A stretch of 64,000 nucleotides of DNA. It comes from Acutalibacteraceae bacterium (lineage in GTDB: Bacteria > Bacillota > Clostridia > Oscillospirales > Acutalibacteraceae). The position numbers and the translations under genes were made by a program. The notes beneath the pieces are model-generated. The model made no database searches and was not told the DNA's origin. It saw nothing but the letters and a program-made list of their open reading frames with translations. The DNA is taken from positions 2,965-66,964 of the forward strand of contig JAZROQ010000003.1 in assembly GCA_045648765.1 (NCBI GenBank), given 5' to 3'. Below are positions 55,413-63,128 of this stretch, in pieces; position 1 is the stretch's first letter, and the number at the start of each line of letters is the position of its first letter.

Positions 55413-56579
55413 ATGAACGAAATCATTCTGATTAAAAACGGCGAACTGGCGCTCAAAGGCTTAAACCGCAGTACGTTCGAAGAAGTGTTGCTCAAAAATT
55501 TGCGTCACCGTTTACGCACGGTGGGGAATTTCACGTTGCGCAAAGCGCAATCCACCGTATATATCGAACCGCGCGACGAAGTAACCGATTGGGATACCGT
55601 CAGCGACCAAGTTGCCAAGGTGTTTGGCATTTCCGCCTTTTCCCGCGCCTGTGTGGTCGAAAAGGATTTAGAAGCCATCAAATCCGCCGCGGCGGAATAT
55701 TTGGCGCCGTCGCTGCAAATGGCGCGCACGTTCAAAGTGGAGGCCAAACGCGCCGACAAACAATTCCCCCTGACTTCTCCGCAAATTTGCGCCGAAGTGG
55801 GCGGTGCTGTATTGAGTGCGTTCCCGCACTTGACCGTAGACGTTCATAACCCCGAAGTGACCGTTTGGGTAGAAGTTCGCGATTTTGGCGCCTACATTCA
55901 CGGCCCGCAACAACAAGGTGCGGGCGGTATGCCGGTGGGCACGGGCGGAAAAGCCGCCATTTTGATTTCGGGCGGTATCGATTCACCTGTTGCCGCCTAT
56001 ATGATGGCCAAACGCGGTATTTCACTTTTTGGTGTTCACTTTGCTTCACCGCCCTATACCAGCGAACGCGCCGAAATGAAGGTGGTTTCGCTGCTCGAAA
56101 AAGTCAGTGAATACGCGGGGCACATGTCACTTGCCATTGTCCCGTTTACCCATATTCAAGAAGAAATCGGAAAACATTGCCCCGAAGAACTGTTCACCTT
56201 GGTTATGCGCCGTTTTATGATGCGCATTGCCACGCGCTTGGCACAAGAAAACGAGTGTTCGGCACTTGTTACGGGCGAAAGCGTGGGACAAGTTGCCAGT
56301 CAAACGCTTCCGGCACTGGTTTGTACCGATGCGGTAGCCGATCTGCCTGTTTTGCGACCTGTGATCGGTATGGACAAAGAAGAAATCATCGCCATTTCGC
56401 GGCGCATCGACACGTTTGATATTTCCATTCAACCGTACGAAGATTGTTGCACTGTGTTTACCCCGCGTCATCCGCGTACCCGCCCCCGTATCGAAGAACT
56501 CGAAGCGGCGGAATCGTTGTTAGCGGTAGACGAACTCATCGAAGAAGCCGTTGCCGGCGTACGGTATCGGAAAATCTGA
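55413..56579 (+). CDS. thiI: tRNA 4-thiouridine(8) synthase ThiI (no rhodanese domain)
   Basis: THUMP N-terminal region and the PP-loop LISGGIDSPVAAYMM. 388 aa. Confidence 0.92.
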   Translation: MNEIILIKNGELALKGLNRSTFEEVLLKNLRHRLRTVGNFTLRKAQSTVYIEPRDEVTDWDTVSDQVAKVFGISAFSRACVVEKDLEAIKSAAAEYLAPSLQMARTFKVEAKRADKQFPLTSPQICAEVGGAVLSAFPHLTVDVHNPEVTVWVEVRDFGAYIHGPQQQGAGGMPVGTGGKAAILISGGIDSPVAAYMMAKRGISLFGVHFASPPYTSERAEMKVVSLLEKVSEYAGHMSLAIVPFTHIQEEIGKHCPEELFTLVMRRFMMRIATRLAQENECSALVTGESVGQVASQTLPALVCTDAVADLPVLRPVIGMDKEEIIAISRRIDTFDISIQPYEDCCTVFTPRHPRTRPRIEELEAAESLLAVDELIEEAVAGVRYRKI

Positions 56580-56595
56580 TAAGGTGGTGAAAACC

Positions 56596-59500
56596 ATGAA
56601 TGCGGAGATCATTTCGGTAGGAACAGAATTGCTTTTGGGGGATATTCTCAACTCCAACAGCCAATTTTTGTCACAAGAACTTGCCGCTTACGGCATTGAT
56701 ATTTTGTATCAATCCACCGTGGGCGACAACAAACAACGCTTGGAACAAACCTTAAAAACGGCGCTTTCGCGTTGCGATATGGTCATTCTCACGGGGGGAC
56801 TCGGTCCCACCGAAGACGATATCACGCGCGAAGTGGCGGCAGAAGTGTTGGGTTTGCCGCTCGAACTGCACGAAGAAAGTTTGGGGCGTATTCAAGAATA
56901 TTTTGCCAGTACCGGCAAAGAATACACCGAAAATAACCGCAAACAAGCTCTTTTACCCAAAGATTGCATCGTATTGCCCAACGACCGCGGCACTGCCCCC
57001 GGTTGTGTCATGCAACAAGAGGGCAAACACGTCATTTTATTGCCCGGTCCGCCGTATGAACTGACGTTAATGTTCACCGAATACGTGGCGCCGTATTTGT
57101 CGCAATGTTCGGGCGGCACGATTTATTCGCATATTGTGGGTGTGTTCGGCATTGCCGAATCTGCCATTGGGGAACGTTTGCAAGATTTGATGGCAAACAG
57201 CAATCCCACCGTGGCACCCTATGCCAAAGAAGGCGAAGTAATCATTCGCGTGACCGCCAAAGCCGCCACTAAAGAAGAGGCAGACGCCATGTGCGAACCC
57301 ATCATCGCAGAAATCTGCGAACGGTTGGGCAATGCCGTTTATGGCGTCGATGCAGGCAATCTGTCCAAACGCGTGGTCACCTTGCTTTCTGAAAATAATA
57401 TGAAAATAGCCACCGCCGAGTCGTGCACTGCGGGTATTCTTTCGGGCAAACTTACCGAAGTTTCGGGTGCTTCGCGCGTGTTCGAGTGTGGTGTTGCCGC
57501 CTATTCCAAAGAAATCAAACACCAAGTTTTGGGTGTAGATGAAGTGATTTTGGAAGAAAAAGGCGCCGTTTCTCCCGAAACGGCGGGTGCCATGGCAAAC
57601 GGTGCGCGCTTGGTGGGGAACGCCGATATCGGTGTGGGTATCACCGGTGTAGCAGGGCCCGAAACCAGCGAAGGCAAAGCCGTTGGCACGGTGTACGTTG
57701 CTTTGGCAGACGAAAAGCGGGTATGGGTCAAAAAGATTTTGGCAGGTCACAACGATGAAGACCGCGAACATATCCGCCACATTGCCACTTCGTATGCACT
57801 GGATATGACACGTCGTTATTTGGAAGCGTTGCCCGGTGTGATGGCGGGCGGACAGTTGTGGGAACAATTACCGCCTGTAGAAGCCACCCTCACCCCCGAA
57901 ATAGCCAAAGCCAAACGTCGGGCACGGTTGTGGCGTTGGTTATCGGCTTTGGTGATGTTGTTGGTTGCGGCAGCCGTTTTGTTCTATACATATTGGTATA
58001 TTCCTTATCGCAATCAAAAACGATTTGACGAACTGTACGCACAATATACCGACAGTCAACCGGTCAGTACGCCGTCTGTCAGTTACCCTGCGGGGATATT
58101 AAAACAATTTATGTCGTTGTATCAAACCAACGACGATATTTGCGGCTGGATCACCGTGGCCGACACGCGTATCAATTACCCTGTCGTGGAAGAACCGTCG
58201 GAAGGGTTTTATCAAGAACACGACTTTGACGGCGTGGCATCACCCTATGGGGTGCCGTATGTCAAAGGCGGCGCCAAATGGGAAGCGGGGCTCACCCCGA
58301 AAACCGTTGCTGTTTTCGGCAATAATGCGGGTAACGATCAAATGTTTGCGCCGCTTACCAATTATACCAAAATCGAATTTTTGCGTAAGCACACCTTGCT
58401 GAACATGAGCACGCTGTACCAAGAAGGAACCTACAAAGTGTTTGCGGTGATGTTGGTGGACGACACCGACGAAGAGGAATTCGACTACGCCGCAACTGTG
58501 TTTGCCGATGAAGAAGAATTTTTGTATCACGTTACGCAAATTCGTATGCGTTCGTTGTTCGACACGCCCGTAGACGTGGTCGAAGGAGACAGTTTGTTAT
58601 TGCTCAGCACACCGATTGACTACGGATACGAAGGAGCACGTGTGGTAGTGGCGGCGCGCAAAGTACGCACGGGTGAAGTGCGTGAAAACGACCTTTCCAA
58701 AGCACGTGCCAACCGCAGTGTGCACATGCCCAAAGGTTGGGTGGAACAACACGGTTCCATAACTACAACGGTGCCGACCACCGTAACCGAAACCACCACC
58801 GTAACCGAAACCACCACCACCGAAACAACGGTAGCCACCACAACGACTACCAAAAAACCAACCACTACCACAAAACCAACCACAACGACAACTAAAAAAC
58901 CGACCACCACCACGGAAGCCACCACTGTCCCCACCACAACCACCACAAAGCCGGCAACGCCTTTGCCACCGGCAGGTGCGGTGTCGGGTACGGTGTCCGG
59001 CAGCATTGCCGAGCAAGAATTTTTGTCGCTTTTTGCGGTAAAAAACAGCGGCGTGCAAGATGCCGATTTGGCAGATTGCACCGATGAAAACGGTGTGATT
59101 CGTCCCAAAACCAAAGAACAACTGCAACGTGTGTTGACACATATTGTCAAAGTGGAACTCGGCTCTGCCAGCGCGATGGTCAACTCCACCGAAGCGCAAA
59201 AAGCGCAAGCGGTTGCCTCCTACACATACATTTTGCGTCATTGTGCGGGTGGTGCGGTATATCCCTATTCTTTCAAATCGCTGAGTCTTTCCAACAAAAC
59301 CGACAAAAAGATTTACGATGCCGTGGGCGATGTCGTCGGTGTGAAATTGCTCGATCTAAGCAAAACGAGTTTTTCGCAAATGTTGTGCTACACGCCATAT
59401 TCCGCGGCATCGGGCGGCTACACTTCTTCGTGCCATCGTGTGTGGACGTTAAATTTGCCGTATGTGCAAAGTGTGTTCAGCAAATACGACGATGCGCTGA

Positions 59501-60009
59501 CCTACGCCAAATACCGTGGCCCGGGTAGCTTTGTCAACACTGTCACCATCAAACGCGACCAATTGTATGACAAAGTGCAAAAATGGGTTGCGGCGCAAGA
59601 TAAAAATGCCACCATGCCGGAAGAACAGTTCACCACCGACAACGCGGTGTTGCCGCTTCGTGCGCTTTCCTACGACGGCGACGGCAGTGCGGGCAAGGGT
59701 GATGCATGGAATGTGGTTTATCAAACTAATTTCTATTATCTGGATGCAAGCGGCAAGAAAAAAGTGATAACCGGTCATCAAATGCGCAGCATTTTGGGGC
59801 TTCGTTCTCACGCCTTCCGCACTTCGTACGATGCAGCCACCCAAACGGTCACCATTACCACACAAGGCTATGGTCACGGCGTGGGGCTCAGCCAAATGGG
59901 CGCTGTTGGCTATGCCAACGAAGAAGGCTGGACTTACGTTCAAATTTTGCGGCATTATTACTCGGTCACCGAAAAAAGCGCTCATCAAGTTGTTTTGCCG
60001 AAATGGTAA
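56596..60009 (+). CDS. Fusion protein: CinA (MoCF/PncC-type), TM helix, degenerate sortase-B-like domain, Thr/Pro-rich linker, SpoIID/LytB domain
   Basis: A single 1137-codon ORF. CinA part: MNAEIISVGTELLLGDILNSNSQFL..., LTGGLGPTEDD and ATAESCTAGIL. TM helix: WLSALVMLLVAAAVLFYTYWYI. Sortase-like part: NDDICGWITVADTRINYPVVE...VFGNN...LLLSTP. SpoIID part: ...QGYGHGVGLSQMGAVGYA. Confidence 0.75.
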   Translation: MNAEIISVGTELLLGDILNSNSQFLSQELAAYGIDILYQSTVGDNKQRLEQTLKTALSRCDMVILTGGLGPTEDDITREVAAEVLGLPLELHEESLGRIQEYFASTGKEYTENNRKQALLPKDCIVLPNDRGTAPGCVMQQEGKHVILLPGPPYELTLMFTEYVAPYLSQCSGGTIYSHIVGVFGIAESAIGERLQDLMANSNPTVAPYAKEGEVIIRVTAKAATKEEADAMCEPIIAEICERLGNAVYGVDAGNLSKRVVTLLSENNMKIATAESCTAGILSGKLTEVSGASRVFECGVAAYSKEIKHQVLGVDEVILEEKGAVSPETAGAMANGARLVGNADIGVGITGVAGPETSEGKAVGTVYVALADEKRVWVKKILAGHNDEDREHIRHIATSYALDMTRRYLEALPGVMAGGQLWEQLPPVEATLTPEIAKAKRRARLWRWLSALVMLLVAAAVLFYTYWYIPYRNQKRFDELYAQYTDSQPVSTPSVSYPAGILKQFMSLYQTNDDICGWITVADTRINYPVVEEPSEGFYQEHDFDGVASPYGVPYVKGGAKWEAGLTPKTVAVFGNNAGNDQMFAPLTNYTKIEFLRKHTLLNMSTLYQEGTYKVFAVMLVDDTDEEEFDYAATVFADEEEFLYHVTQIRMRSLFDTPVDVVEGDSLLLLSTPIDYGYEGARVVVAARKVRTGEVRENDLSKARANRSVHMPKGWVEQHGSITTTVPTTVTETTTVTETTTTETTVATTTTTKKPTTTTKPTTTTTKKPTTTTEATTVPTTTTTKPATPLPPAGAVSGTVSGSIAEQEFLSLFAVKNSGVQDADLADCTDENGVIRPKTKEQLQRVLTHIVKVELGSASAMVNSTEAQKAQAVASYTYILRHCAGGAVYPYSFKSLSLSNKTDKKIYDAVGDVVGVKLLDLSKTSFSQMLCYTPYSAASGGYTSSCHRVWTLNLPYVQSVFSKYDDALTYAKYRGPGSFVNTVTIKRDQLYDKVQKWVAAQDKNATMPEEQFTTDNAVLPLRALSYDGDGSAGKGDAWNVVYQTNFYYLDASGKKKVITGHQMRSILGLRSHAFRTSYDAATQTVTITTQGYGHGVGLSQMGAVGYANEEGWTYVQILRHYYSVTEKSAHQVVLPKW
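58760..58978 (+). repeat. Thr-codon-rich imperfect tandem repeats encoding the linker of the fusion protein
   Basis: ACC/ACA/ACG runs and repeated ACCGTAACCGAAACCACCACC and AAAAAACC(A/G)ACCAC units. They translate to TTVTETTTVTETTTTETTVATTTTTKKPTTTTKPTTTTTKKPTTTTEATTVPTTTTTKP. Confidence 0.8.
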
Positions 60010-60017
60010 AAAAATAT

Positions 60018-60046
60018 TTGACAAACCAAAAATTGGGTGCTACAAT
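60018..60046 (+). promoter_or_regulatory. Near-consensus promoter TTGACA-17-TGcTACAAT for the aro operon leader
   Basis: TTGACA at 60018-60023 and TACAAT at 60041-60046, with TG at 60038-60039. Confidence 0.7.
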
Positions 60047-60065
60047 ACTTGACAAGGTGTTATTT

Positions 60066-60149
60066 ATGAAAACGATTATTTGTGCAGCTCAATACGTGTA
60101 TTACTTTTACTTTTTCAACAAAGGTAAGAGTGCTTTTTGCTGCCAATGA
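60066..60149 (+). CDS. Candidate leader peptide, 27 aa, Tyr/Phe-rich (MKTIICAAQYVYYFYFFNKGKSAFCCQ)
   Basis: ATG with AAGGTG 8 nt upstream. Codons 10-17 read Y V Y Y F Y F F. It sits between the promoter and an intrinsic terminator upstream of aroF-tyrA. Confidence 0.6.
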   Translation: MKTIICAAQYVYYFYFFNKGKSAFCCQ

Positions 60150-60186
60150 TTAAAAGACAAACAGGTCTTTTAACACTTGTCTTTAA

Positions 60187-60218
60187 CGACTCGCAGTGAA
60201 AAGCTGCGGGTCGTTTTT
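60187..60218 (+). terminator. Attenuator terminator in the aro leader
   Basis: CGACTCGCAG-TGAAAAG-CTGCGGGTCG (10 bp including one G-U) followed by TTTTTATTTT. It ends 37 nt before the aroF ATG. Confidence 0.7.
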
Positions 60219-60254
60219 ATTTTGTAGGCATAACAACCTAAGGAGGAAACCGTC

Positions 60255-61259
60255 ATGATTGCCGTTGTCAAACAAAACGTAGAAGAAGAACAACTTCAAA
60301 ATTTAATCGAATGGTTACAAACGCAAAACGTTTCTGTTCATATTTCCCGTGGCGAAAACCACACAGTGTTGGGCTTGGTGGGGGATACCAGCCATATCGA
60401 CATGGAACTTTTGCAAAATTTGGATATTGTCGAACGTGTCACCCGCATTAGCGAACCGTTCAAAAATGCCAACCGCAAATTCCATCCCAAAGACACGGTG
60501 GTGGATGTCAGCGGTGTCAAAATCGGTAGTGGTCACTTTGCTATTATTGCGGGTCCTTGTTCAGTGGAATCGCGCGAACAAATAGTGGAAGTAGCCAAAA
60601 GCGTCAAAGCATCGGGTGCTTCACTGCTTCGTGGCGGCGCGTTCAAACCGCGTACTTCACCGTACGATTTCCAAGGCTTAAAAGCCGAAGGCTTGGAACT
60701 GTTAAAACTTGCCAAAGCAGAAACCGGCATGCCCATTGTGACCGAAATTATGAGCGCGTCGCACTTGCCGCTTTTTGAAGACGTCGACTTAATTCAAGTC
60801 GGCGCGCGCAACATGCAAAACTTTGAACTGCTCAAAGAACTTGGCAAAATCAACAAACCGATTTTGCTCAAACGCGGTCTTGCCAGCACCATGAAAGAAT
60901 GGCTCATGAGCGCGGAATACATTATGGCAGGCGGCAACGAACAAATCATTTTGTGCGAACGCGGTATCCGCACGTTCGAAACATACACCCGCAACACGTT
61001 GGATTTGTCGGCGGTTCCCATGCTCAAAGAATTGTCGCACTTGCCGGTCATTGTCGACCCCAGCCACGCAGGCGGGCTCAGCCGCTTGGTCAAACCCATG
61101 TCTATGGCAGCAGTTGCCGCCGGCACCGACGGTTTGATGATCGAAGTGCATAACAATCCCAGCCGCGCCTTGTGCGACGGCGCGCAATCGTTAACGCCCG
61201 ACCAATTTGACGACGTTGCCAAAGCCGTACGCCGTGTGCAGGAGGCGCTGAAAGCATGA
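60255..61259 (+). CDS. aroF: 3-deoxy-7-phosphoheptulonate (DAHP) synthase, type I-beta, with an N-terminal regulatory domain
   Basis: AGPCSVES, KPRTSPYDFQGL, VGARNMQN, LLKRG and DPSHAGG. About 75 aa of ferredoxin/ACT-like N-terminal extension. Confidence 0.9.
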   Translation: MIAVVKQNVEEEQLQNLIEWLQTQNVSVHISRGENHTVLGLVGDTSHIDMELLQNLDIVERVTRISEPFKNANRKFHPKDTVVDVSGVKIGSGHFAIIAGPCSVESREQIVEVAKSVKASGASLLRGGAFKPRTSPYDFQGLKAEGLELLKLAKAETGMPIVTEIMSASHLPLFEDVDLIQVGARNMQNFELLKELGKINKPILLKRGLASTMKEWLMSAEYIMAGGNEQIILCERGIRTFETYTRNTLDLSAVPMLKELSHLPVIVDPSHAGGLSRLVKPMSMAAVAAGTDGLMIEVHNNPSRALCDGAQSLTPDQFDDVAKAVRRVQEALKA

Positions 61260-62104
61260 TTATCGGTGTTGTAGGGCTTGGCCTTATCGGCGCTTCCCTT
61301 GCTAAAGCACTCAAAGCCAACACCAATCATACCGTGCTTGGTTTTGATATTCGTTCCGCCACTACGCAATATGCCAAGCTCAGTGGCATCATCGATGCCG
61401 AACTTTCGGAAGATACCGTCAAAGATGTCGATTATCTGTTGCTTTGCGCCTATCCGCAAGCCAACAACGAATACCTTTTAAACACCGCACAGCAGATCAC
61501 TCCCAAAACAGTGGTGATTGATTGCGGCGGTATCAAACGCGAAGTTTGTGGTGTTGGTTTTGCTCTTTCAACGCAATACGGCTTTACTTTCATTGGCGGT
61601 CACCCCATGGCGGGGTTACACCGTTCGGGTATCAAATATGCCACGGCCGATTTGTATCAAAACGCGTCCATGATTTTAACACCGTATAATACCGAAGACA
61701 TCACCTTGCTTGAACGTGTGACAGCGTTTATCAAATCCATGGGTTTTGGCTCGGTTACGGTTACTACTCCCGCCGAGCACGACCGCATCATTGCCTTTAC
61801 CTCGCAACTGGCACACGTGGTTTCCAATGCCTATGTCAAAAGTCCCACCGCCGCTGTGCACCGTGGCTTTTCGGCGGGCAGTTACCAAGATTTAACGCGT
61901 GTTGCACGGCTTAACGAAAGCATGTGGACTGAGTTGTTTTTGGCAAACCGCGATAACTTGTTGTACGAAATAGATACCTTCATCGAATCGCTTTCGGAAT
62001 ACCGTAACGCCCTTGCAAACAACGATAGCGAGGAATTAAAAGCTCTGCTGCGTGATGGCAGCGACCGAAAAGAAAGGATTGACTGTGAGCATGCAACGCA
62101 TTGA
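61256..62104 (+). CDS. tyrA: Prephenate dehydrogenase
   Basis: IIGVVGLGLIGASLA (NAD-binding), GGHPMAG and SHLPH-like TSQLAHVVS. ATGA overlap with aroF. Confidence 0.88.
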   Translation: MIIGVVGLGLIGASLAKALKANTNHTVLGFDIRSATTQYAKLSGIIDAELSEDTVKDVDYLLLCAYPQANNEYLLNTAQQITPKTVVIDCGGIKREVCGVGFALSTQYGFTFIGGHPMAGLHRSGIKYATADLYQNASMILTPYNTEDITLLERVTAFIKSMGFGSVTVTTPAEHDRIIAFTSQLAHVVSNAYVKSPTAAVHRGFSAGSYQDLTRVARLNESMWTELFLANRDNLLYEIDTFIESLSEYRNALANNDSEELKALLRDGSDRKERIDCEHATH

Positions 62105-63128
62105 TGTTTCGGCTTCCCGCCACTATGCGGTGTTGATACAAAACGGCATTTTAAACCATGCGGGCGAACATTGCGCTACAGTAGTTCGCGGCAACAAACT
62201 GTTGTTGCTCACCGACGAAACGGTGGGCGCTTTGTACGAACAAACTGTGCGCACCGCCTTGGAAAAAGCCGACTTTTGTGTTTGCACCTATCGCATACCG
62301 GCAGGCGAATCCTCCAAAAGTGTCGATAACTACTTAAAAATCATTTCCTTTTTAGCCGAAAACGGTTTTACCCGCAGCGATGCGCTGGTCGCTTTGGGCG
62401 GCGGTGTGGTGGGCGACTTGGGCGGTTTTTGCGCCGCTTCTTATTTGCGCGGTATTGGTTTTGTGCAAATTCCCACCACGTTGCTCGCGTGTGTCGATTC
62501 CTCGGTCGGCGGCAAAACCGCCGTCAATTTGCCGCAAGGCAAAAATTTGCTTGGCGCATTTTACCAGCCGTGGCTTGTTTTGTGCGACCCCGCCACACTC
62601 AACACCTTGCCAAAGTCGGTCTATGCCGACGGCATGGCCGAAGTGATAAAATACGGCATGCTCGGCGATGCCGATTTGTTCGAACAATTGGAAAAAGGAA
62701 CACTCCAAAACAGCGATATTATCGCACGTTGCGTTGCTATCAAACGCGATATCGTGCAACAAGATGAACACGACAGCGGCGTGCGCGGATTGCTCAATTT
62801 TGGGCACACCGTCGGTCACGCGGTAGAAAAATGCAGCCGTTTTGCCATTCCTCACGGCAGCGCGGTGGCTATCGGCATGGTTGCCGTTACCCGCGCTGTG
62901 GCCGATGCCGAACTTGCCAACCGCTTGGAAGCACTGCTTATAAAAAACGGTTTGCCCACACGGTGCGCGTTTACCCCCGACGAATTGTATGCCGCTTCGC
63001 TTTCGGATAAAAAACGTGTAACCGACGGCATCCAAGCCGTAACGGTGAAAACGCTTGGAAATGCCAAACTCACACAAATGACGTTGTCGGAATGGAAAGC
63101 GTGTGTTCAAAGGGGTTGTGCACCATGA
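62091..63128 (+). CDS. aroB: 3-dehydroquinate synthase
   Basis: ALGGGVVGDLGGF, VDSSVGGKTAVN and LNFGHTVGHAVE. The ATG at 62091 overlaps the tyrA end by 14 nt. Confidence 0.92.
   Translation: MQRIDVSASRHYAVLIQNGILNHAGEHCATVVRGNKLLLLTDETVGALYEQTVRTALEKADFCVCTYRIPAGESSKSVDNYLKIISFLAENGFTRSDALVALGGGVVGDLGGFCAASYLRGIGFVQIPTTLLACVDSSVGGKTAVNLPQGKNLLGAFYQPWLVLCDPATLNTLPKSVYADGMAEVIKYGMLGDADLFEQLEKGTLQNSDIIARCVAIKRDIVQQDEHDSGVRGLLNFGHTVGHAVEKCSRFAIPHGSAVAIGMVAVTRAVADAELANRLEALLIKNGLPTRCAFTPDELYAASLSDKKRVTDGIQAVTVKTLGNAKLTQMTLSEWKACVQRGCAP

Follow-up and report, generated by a model that had tools for sequence, protein, structure and literature searches.

The window analysed here is a stretch of 64,000 nucleotides (nt) from an Acutalibacteraceae bacterium of the class Clostridia (GenBank assembly GCA_045648765.1, contig JAZROQ010000003.1, positions 2,965 to 66,964 of the forward strand). 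Towards its 3′ end it carries the aromatic biosynthesis genes aroF, tyrA, aroB and aroA, preceded by a leader region that contains a promoter, a small open reading frame (ORF) with a run of Tyr and Phe codons, and an intrinsic terminator (Table 1). This leader is very probably a transcription attenuator of the operon. According to Pfam, the product of aroF, the first gene under the proposed regulation, is a DAHP synthase whose N-terminal part is a ferredoxin-like regulatory domain. The Pfam assignments agree with an earlier annotation, made by a model from the letters of the DNA and its ORFs (hereafter the sequence-only reading), which had named the gene order aroF-tyrA-aroB-aroA and a DAHP synthase with a regulatory domain.

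Table 1. Features of the aroF leader and of the downstream operon, in window coordinates. SD, Shine-Dalgarno sequence; MFE, minimum free energy.
Feature	Position	Strand	Details
sigma-70-type promoter	60018-60046	+	-35 TTGACA 60018-60023, 17-nt spacer, extended -10 TGcTACAAT 60038-60046
leader SD AAGGTG	60054-60059	+	6 nt upstream of ATG 60066; read from the sequence
leader peptide ORF, 27 codons	60066-60149	+	MKTIICAAQYVYYFYFFNKGKSAFCCQ; stop TGA 60147-60149
segment A (GCAGC)	60084-60088	+	pairs with GCUGC 60139-60143; in MFE fold
regulatory codon run Y V Y Y F Y F F	60093-60116	+	codons 10-17; proposed stall site when Tyr-tRNA or Phe-tRNA is scarce
hairpin B:C, 13 bp	60102-60132	+	60102-60114 with 60120-60132; codons 13-17 (UACUUUUACUUUU) pair with AAAGGUAAGAGUG; -10.7 kcal/mol
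segment D, antiterminator 5′ strand	60132-60143	+	GCUUUUUGCUGC; overlaps leader codons 23-26
linker hairpin AAAGAC/GUCUUU	60153-60170	+	apex of antiterminator; adds about 4 kcal/mol to the antiterminated fold
intrinsic terminator (attenuator)	60185-60225	+	stem 60185-60215, 13 bp, 7 G-C pairs, GAAAA loop, then TTTATTTTGT; -21.4 kcal/mol
antiterminator 3′ strand	60193-60204	+	GCAGUGAAAAGC; top of terminator 5′ arm, loop, first 2 nt of 3′ arm
aroF	60240-61259	+	SD AAGGAGG 60240-60246, ATG 60255; PF00793 2e-80, PF18152 4e-22
tyrA	61256-62104	+	prephenate dehydrogenase, PDH_N/PDH_C (Pfam)
aroB	62052-63128 (ORF as called)	+	DHQ_synthase (Pfam); true start uncertain
aroA	from about 63125, cut at window end (64000)	+	EPSP_synthase (Pfam)

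The promoter matches 11 of the 12 consensus positions and carries the extended -10 TG in addition, in line with the near-consensus promoter noted in the sequence-only reading. The 27-codon ORF and the seven Tyr or Phe codons among its codons 10-17, described in the same reading, agree with the sequence and its translation. Across the 64 kb, this leader is the sole small ORF with at least seven aromatic residues in any eight. An in-frame ATG at 60003 was discarded as the leader start because it is located upstream of the promoter, within the end of the preceding gene. A second perfect TTGACA was observed at 60049-60054, just 3′ of the -10 box and overlapping the predicted transcription start; no -10 box for it was found at 16-18 nt spacing.

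The terminator arms, AACGACTCGCAGT and GCTGCGGGTCGTT, enclose the GAAAA loop. The sequence-only reading had placed this terminator at 60187-60218; its existence stands, with the coordinates off by 2-3 nt. The antiterminator that had been traced by hand, in which segment D pairs with the terminator top over 12 bp including two G-U pairs, is exactly the optimum found by RNAduplex (-17.5 kcal/mol). The MFE fold of 60052-60235 (-53.5 kcal/mol; z = -4.9 against dinucleotide shuffles) holds hairpin B:C, the A:D helix, the linker hairpin and the terminator. The antiterminator amounts to -13.4 kcal/mol, or to -17.6 kcal/mol with the linker hairpin, and A:D plus B:C to -16.0 kcal/mol. A pairing of 60124-60132 with 60102-60110, also proposed from the letters alone, is present in the MFE fold and extends to the 13-bp hairpin B:C. 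This hairpin had been regarded as the alternative to the antiterminator, but it shares just one base with segment D, and the direct competitor is segment A. In our folding model, segment A may be called an anti-antiterminator, which would hold the antiterminator strand when the leader carries no ribosome. Hairpin B:C may be viewed, by analogy, as the counterpart of the 1:2 hairpin of the trp leader. A U-tract (CUUUUUG) follows it on the 3′ side, and hairpin and tract probably also hold the polymerase back until a ribosome has caught up, as happens at the trp 1:2 hairpin. Since the regulatory codons also serve as an arm of this candidate pause and anti-antiterminator hairpin, codon choice and RNA structure would constrain each other.

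To place the leader among its relatives, 80 aroF loci, one genome per species, were collected by a scan with the AroF protein of the window (67-81% identity). These belong to Clostridia, from Oscillospiraceae, Acutalibacteraceae, Ruminococcus, Lachnospiraceae, Sporobacter, Angelakisella, Faecalibacterium, Lawsonibacter, Emergencia and others, and the closest are metagenome-assembled genomes (MAGs) of Clostridia and Acutalibacteraceae (80-81% identity). Within 400 nt upstream of aroF, a small ATG-initiated ORF with at least five Phe or Tyr residues in eight was found at 71 of the 80 loci. Stricter runs were also frequent, with at least six in eight at 63 loci, at least seven at 36 and all eight at 10. 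In contrast, 932 kb of the related loci outside the leader regions, searched on both strands, yielded four small ATG-initiated ORFs at six in eight and none at seven. In 63 of 72 relatives, the 70 nt before the leader SD contain a promoter that agrees with the consensus at 9 or more of 12 positions, compared with 11% of shuffled sequences. The conservation of the ORF and its Tyr/Phe run, a check suggested in the sequence-only reading, was thus seen in about 71 of 80 species.

The reading frame of the run is conserved as well. The 90 nt before the run hold SD and ATG sites in the proportion 72:3:0 for the Tyr/Phe frame and the two other frames, where roughly equal thirds are expected for a non-coding RNA, and the in-frame starts lie 9-42 nt from the run, all at multiples of three. 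Family-wide, the run is made of TTT (206), TTC (32), TAC (150), TAT (106) and TGG (2) codons; both synonymous codons are used for each amino acid, and Tyr and Phe are about equally frequent overall. The order and number of the two residues vary freely among loci (YFYFYF, YYYYYFF, FFYFFF and others; for example MKQNVFTAEYAYYFYFYFGNKSRSVFCCR in L002 and MSLFVFAAAYFYFYFIMSQSKSDLCCK in L021), with the aromatic class kept. These features bear on an explanation in which the element acts as RNA only, its UACUUUUAC repeats and hairpins binding a protein of the TRAP or PyrR kind, a tRNA or a small ligand, and the Tyr/Phe ORF is incidental to a U/A-rich stem. The Tyr/Phe codons do form the 5′ arm of a conserved and covarying hairpin, and the UAC-UUU periodicity does resemble a repeat motif. 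However, the strong frame bias at variable distances in multiples of three, and the free order and number of the residues within a fixed amino acid class, are those of a translated sequence.

The comparison with known RNA families points in the same direction. In a cmscan search with E values up to 10, no Rfam 15 family reached its gathering score on the window leader, and none, T-box included, did so in 12 related loci, so that the known riboswitches and T-boxes, whose presence would have contradicted the sequence-only reading, were not detected by any Rfam model at gathering score. The PyrR binding site (RF00515) reached 28.1 bits where its gathering score is 54, and the trpB motif (RF04312) 25.4 bits where it is 59; these weak matches could be taken in favour of an RNA-only element, but both are far below threshold and align the generic hairpins and the terminator alone. 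Thr_leader (gathering score 55; + strand 15.7 bits, - strand 20.6 bits) and a generic, sub-threshold rpsL_ricks match on the leader were likewise rejected. The Phe, Trp and His leader models did not match the window leader, nor did the T-box at E values up to 10. A TRAP site needs 9-11 (G/U)AG triplets spaced by 2-3 nt, and 60053-60215 holds one GAG (60128-60130) and no UAG. Therefore, we consider an RNA-only element very unlikely.

The remainder of the leader peptide is far less constrained than its run. Its length varies from 14 to 40 residues with both termini variable, and the Tyr/Phe run alone is kept. The segment after the run, AGTAARAGTG-ATTTGTGCTGC, is conserved in its nucleotides irrespective of the frame. 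The stop codon precedes block D in 25 of 68 loci, sometimes as a TAA within AGTAAAAG, and lies at or after the start of D in the other 43, including the window. A 3′ part with conserved nucleotides and a variable stop is characteristic of a leader peptide in which the 3′ half serves as RNA structure. It might be argued that the small ORF encodes a functional hydrophobic micro-protein, with the hairpin as its terminator and aroF transcribed by readthrough or from its own promoter, since the aromatic core is conserved and such peptides could insert into membranes. The variable length and termini, the conservation of the post-run region as RNA, the occurrence of the motif solely upstream of aroF, and the lack of a promoter-like site between the terminator and aroF in the window all argue against this, and we give it the least credence of the alternatives considered.

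The alternative structures show covariation among the relatives. In a MAFFT alignment of 36 leaders, 83.6% of the cells are paired in the terminated state (A:D, B:C and the terminator), with two-sided changes at 22 of 31 pairs. Sliding the partners by 1-3 columns lowers the paired share to 37-48% and the covariation score from 0.372 to about 0.10-0.14. In the 62-sequence alignment produced by a covariance model built from the 36 leaders, which leans towards this structure, 86.8% of cells are paired and the covariation score is 0.47. Individually, hairpin B:C is 83-85% paired in the relatives and the A:D helix 74-80%; for B:C, the MAFFT alignment shows two-sided changes at 9 of 13 pairs and the model-fitted one at all 13. 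The linkers of the relatives also fold better than shuffles (-0.115 against -0.069 kcal/mol per nt). The covariance model placed a single copy in each locus, immediately before aroF in every case (62 loci, E < 1e-3); it detected no second copy near other aromatic genes, and the window has one copy.

The model alignment was not fitted to the antiterminator. In the window register, 68.6% of its antiterminator cells are paired in this alignment, compared with 34-55% after sliding, and the 8-bp core is 76.7% paired. None of 500 shuffles reached the observed percentage paired, number of double-change cells or covariation score. In a register-free test, the 50 nt following the Tyr/Phe run were duplexed against the 5′ arm and loop of the terminator. 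Cognate combinations had a mean of -17.4 kcal/mol, non-cognate combinations -12.1 kcal/mol and shuffled targets -10.3 ± 3.4 kcal/mol, and none of 10,000 permutations reached the cognate mean. The sub-lineages keep the pairing by different sequences: the pair GCUUUUUGCUGC and GCAGUGAAAAGC of the window is replaced by GUGAUUUGUGCUGC with GCAGUGAcAAUCAC in L021, GG(C/G)UAAUUUGUGAUGC with GCGGCACAGGUUA(G/C) in L007 and L026, GCGAUACGUGCUGC with GCGGCACGGUUGC in L066, and UGCUAUGUGAAACGUC with GAUGUUUGCAUAGCA in L006. GGCUAAUUUGUGAUGC with GCGGCACAGGUUAGACC is also among the pairs used. Compensatory change in the antiterminator, another check suggested at the outset, was therefore found.

The terminator itself follows the leader in 69 of 72 relatives and is 91% paired, with compensatory changes at all 13 pairs. 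Terminators seldom keep the sequence of their stem top and loop; here the stem top and the A-rich loop are conserved, and their pairing with segment D explains this. This has a bearing on routes other than attenuation, namely translational coupling by the upstream ORF (uORF), mRNA stability or Rho-dependent polarity, in which the hairpin and T-run would be a partial constitutive terminator. Rho termination that depends on a uORF has been documented in other bacteria, and the ribosome-free fold of our leader gives no strong preference for termination. However, a canonical G+C-rich stem with a T-run is kept in nearly all the relatives, a constitutive terminator would not need its top and loop to complement D, and the aroF SD lies 25 nt past the terminator and is unpaired in the fold. 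Such a route is accordingly improbable in our estimate, about as much so as an RNA-only element.

The position of the ribosome was modelled by masking the RNA. The window RNA ending at 60204 folds as the antiterminator both when free and with a ribosome on codons 12-17, and the antiterminator is lost with a ribosome at the stop codon (mask 60132-60161); the full-length RNA always ends folded as the terminator. Across 68 loci, the antiterminator strand starts at a median of 16 nt past the end of the run; measured from the first base of the stop codon, it begins 17 nt downstream at the latest. The duplex energy available in these loci is -17.5 kcal/mol for a stall in the middle of the run, -16.9 kcal/mol for a stall at its last codon and -6.1 kcal/mol for a ribosome at the stop. 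The antiterminator is weaker with the ribosome at the stop in 67 of the 68 loci (Wilcoxon p ~1e-12). The sequence-only reading had predicted that a stalled ribosome frees the antiterminator strand and that one at the stop codon masks it, and the modelling reproduces this geometry in the window and, with most of the pairing removed at the stop, in those 67 loci.

These observations are consistent with the following model. Transcription would begin near 60053, and a ribosome would load at once on the leader. When either Tyr-tRNA or Phe-tRNA is scarce, the ribosome would stall in the run, covering segment A and the left arm of the codon hairpin and leaving segment D exposed. Segment D would then capture 60193-60204 as the latter leaves the polymerase, with the linker hairpin at the apex, and the antiterminator would block nucleation of the terminator, allowing RNA polymerase to enter aroF. 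When both tRNAs are charged, the ribosome would reach the UGA at 60147 and cover D, and after its release the A:D and B:C helices would re-form. With D covered or A:D re-formed, the 13-bp terminator would form and transcription would stop at the T-run near 60216-60225. Since the run mixes Tyr and Phe codons, the element would read two amino acids. Ribosome stalling, a kinetic competition between the folds, a pausing role of hairpin B:C and a response to Tyr and Phe in vivo are thus predictions of the model.

The features by which an attenuator is recognized are found together at this locus: an ORF with its own SD downstream of a promoter, a cluster of codons for the products of the pathway, an intrinsic terminator before the first gene, and a mutually exclusive antiterminator that depends on the ribosome. 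The sequence parts, the conservation of the ORF, the covariation of the helices and the ribosome geometry were each established computationally. On this wholly computational basis, we consider the element to be a ribosome-mediated Tyr/Phe leader-peptide transcription attenuator of aroF-tyrA-aroB-aroA with a probability of roughly 0.85.

Several observations weigh against this interpretation. First, the terminator (-21.4 kcal/mol) is thermodynamically stabler than the antiterminator (-13.4 or -17.6 kcal/mol); therefore, the switch must work kinetically. The terminator of the Escherichia coli trp attenuator is likewise stabler than its antiterminator, and control there is kinetic. Second, the ribosome-free nascent MFE fold is already antiterminated in the window and in 49 of 68 loci. 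Therefore, termination without translation is not guaranteed and hangs on the order of folding, and this folding result suggests that basal readthrough could be high. Third, in a subclass of 31 loci with early stops, which does not include the window, a ribosome at the stop masks the antiterminator strand just partly. Fourth, scored column by column, the antiterminator shows positive but only modest covariation, since sub-lineages with terminator loops of different length use different registers. The register-free duplex test was run for this reason, and its comparison of cognate and non-cognate pairs is the stronger evidence for the antiterminator. Fifth, a transcription start near 60053 would put the leader SD at the extreme 5′ end of the RNA. 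Finally, the leader is missing in 9 of the 80 relatives, including the closest one, L001 (AroF 80% identity); therefore, the element is dispensable.

The region L001:2670-3000 has just the terminator of the upstream gene and an A/T-rich promoter region, with no leader ORF or attenuator, which suggests from sequence comparison that the attenuator is gained or lost between close lineages. GC-richer loci L062, L064 and L067 have short, Tyr-dominated leaders (MARYAYYYVLYGKCRA, MMHRHFGFYYYVLFM and MLRRYFGYYYCVLFQ) about 120-165 nt upstream of aroF. These were not scored by the covariance model at E < 1e-3 and may form a Tyr-biased sub-family. Among the carriers of the leader are the cultured species Sporobacter termitidis DSM 10068 (L079), Angelakisella massiliensis (L071) and Hominicoprocola fusiformis (L007). 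Contigs L004, L044, L054 and L060, labelled Treponemataceae, Alloprevotella, Thermoguttaceae and Lentisphaerae, carry a clostridial-type aroF with a Tyr/Phe leader, suggesting contamination of MAG bins or horizontal transfer.

A pattern scan of metagenomes with the leader core retrieved 23 contigs, and every one with readable downstream DNA continued into a terminator and then a DAHP synthase with the ferredoxin-like domain; no other gene context was found among these hits. In metagenome contig L090 (about 650-1010, - strand), the leader and segment D are kept and the terminator and aroF are swapped for unrelated sequence, which could be a rearrangement or a chimeric assembly. Taking the relatives and the metagenomes together, the attenuator most likely belongs to a sizeable and apparently undescribed family that is widespread in gut Clostridia. 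We further favour, with some reservation, the view that this large family sensing both Tyr and Phe and not a T-box or TRAP is the dominant transcriptional control of the enzyme that opens the shikimate pathway in Clostridia of the gut and rumen, among them Oscillospiraceae, Acutalibacteraceae, Ruminococcus, Lachnospiraceae, Sporobacter and Faecalibacterium.

The proposed architecture is that of the classical attenuators. Like E. coli pheL-pheA, pheM-pheST (PMC3082878) and trpL/hisL, it has a short translated leader with a run of codons for the product of the pathway. It also follows the pheL/trpL paradigm of a 1:2 hairpin, a 2:3 antiterminator and a 3:4 intrinsic terminator, with segment 2 masked by a ribosome at the stop codon. 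However, it has no sequence or covariance-model similarity to the E. coli phe, trp or his leaders, its hosts are Clostridia and not a proteobacterium, and it precedes the entry enzyme of the common pathway and tyrA, where the phe leader precedes pheA. It further differs in its mixed run of Tyr and Phe codons, which supplies the 5′ arm of the hairpin corresponding to 1:2, and in a short GCAGC:GCUGC helix of its own that competes for the antiterminator strand.

Closer in gene context is aroR of Corynebacterium glutamicum, a leader peptide that precedes an aroF operon and at which stalling enhances transcription (Neshat et al. 2014, as reviewed in PMC11802643). It shares with the present element a leader of Phe and Tyr codons before a DAHP synthase operon. 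It differs in its host, an actinobacterium, in having a Phe-Tyr-Phe tripeptide instead of a run of 6-10 residues, and in a reported response to Phe and not to Tyr (PMC11802643). Another precedent is uORFC-13-1, a computationally predicted attenuator of aroF that is described only for Acholeplasma and unassigned environmental sequences, with 24 representatives (Brewer et al. 2021, PMC8632094). It also occurs exclusively upstream of aroF, comprises promoter boxes, a ribosome-binding site, a start codon and a Phe-encoding U-run, adjoins an intrinsic terminator and has an extra conserved base-paired element (PMC8632094). It is reported to encode "at least one" Phe, with no Tyr/Phe run reported, and it is absent from Rfam 15. 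In Bacilli, His leader peptides are found upstream of hisS/hisZ paralogues (Naville & Gautheret 2010, PMC2965389). They are a precedent for "regular" leader-peptide attenuators replacing T-boxes in Firmicutes (PMC2965389), and they differ in amino acid, genes and lineage, with unrelated sequences. We found no prior description of a Tyr/Phe leader in Clostridia in the openly searchable full-text literature. The earlier suggestion that such attenuation is uncommon for aromatic operons of Firmicutes and unannotated therefore holds as far as this literature and Rfam 15 reach.

Two observations concern the neighbouring genes. The aroB ORF as called mechanically begins with a GTG at 62052 and shares 53 nt with the end of tyrA (62052-62104); its real start is probably a downstream in-frame codon. 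Upstream of the leader, positions 56551-60009 (+ strand) form a single frame of 1152 amino acids with a complete CinA (MoCF_biosynth, CinA_KH and CinA domains, residues 19-424) in its N-terminal part, followed by a hydrophobic segment, a long Thr/Pro-rich linker and a C-terminal SpoIID-like region (weak, E = 7e-4). This frame is either a real fusion or two genes in one frame without an intervening stop.

Leader-peptide attenuation is textbook knowledge in Proteobacteria and documented in Actinobacteria. Reports from Firmicutes are rare, and aromatic operons there are generally accepted to be under T-box or TRAP control. The clostridial aroF attenuator would extend the short list of leader-peptide attenuators in Firmicutes. 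It also reveals an annotation gap, as small ORFs and candidate attenuators precede aroF in many abundant gut and rumen Clostridia and are not in Rfam. The predicted signal for aromatic supply in these bacteria is charged tRNA-Tyr and tRNA-Phe, and not Trp. In DAHP synthases of the Thermotoga type, the ferredoxin-like domain mediates feedback inhibition by Tyr and Phe, and such feedback in the present AroF would be a second layer of control. For the engineering of anaerobes, the element could provide a small, natural switch that responds to Tyr and Phe. The mechanism is classical attenuation and leaves the paradigm unchanged; what may be useful is the apparent prevalence of this control of aroF in gut Clostridia, its predicted dual specificity for Tyr and Phe, and regulatory codons that double as the arm of a hairpin.

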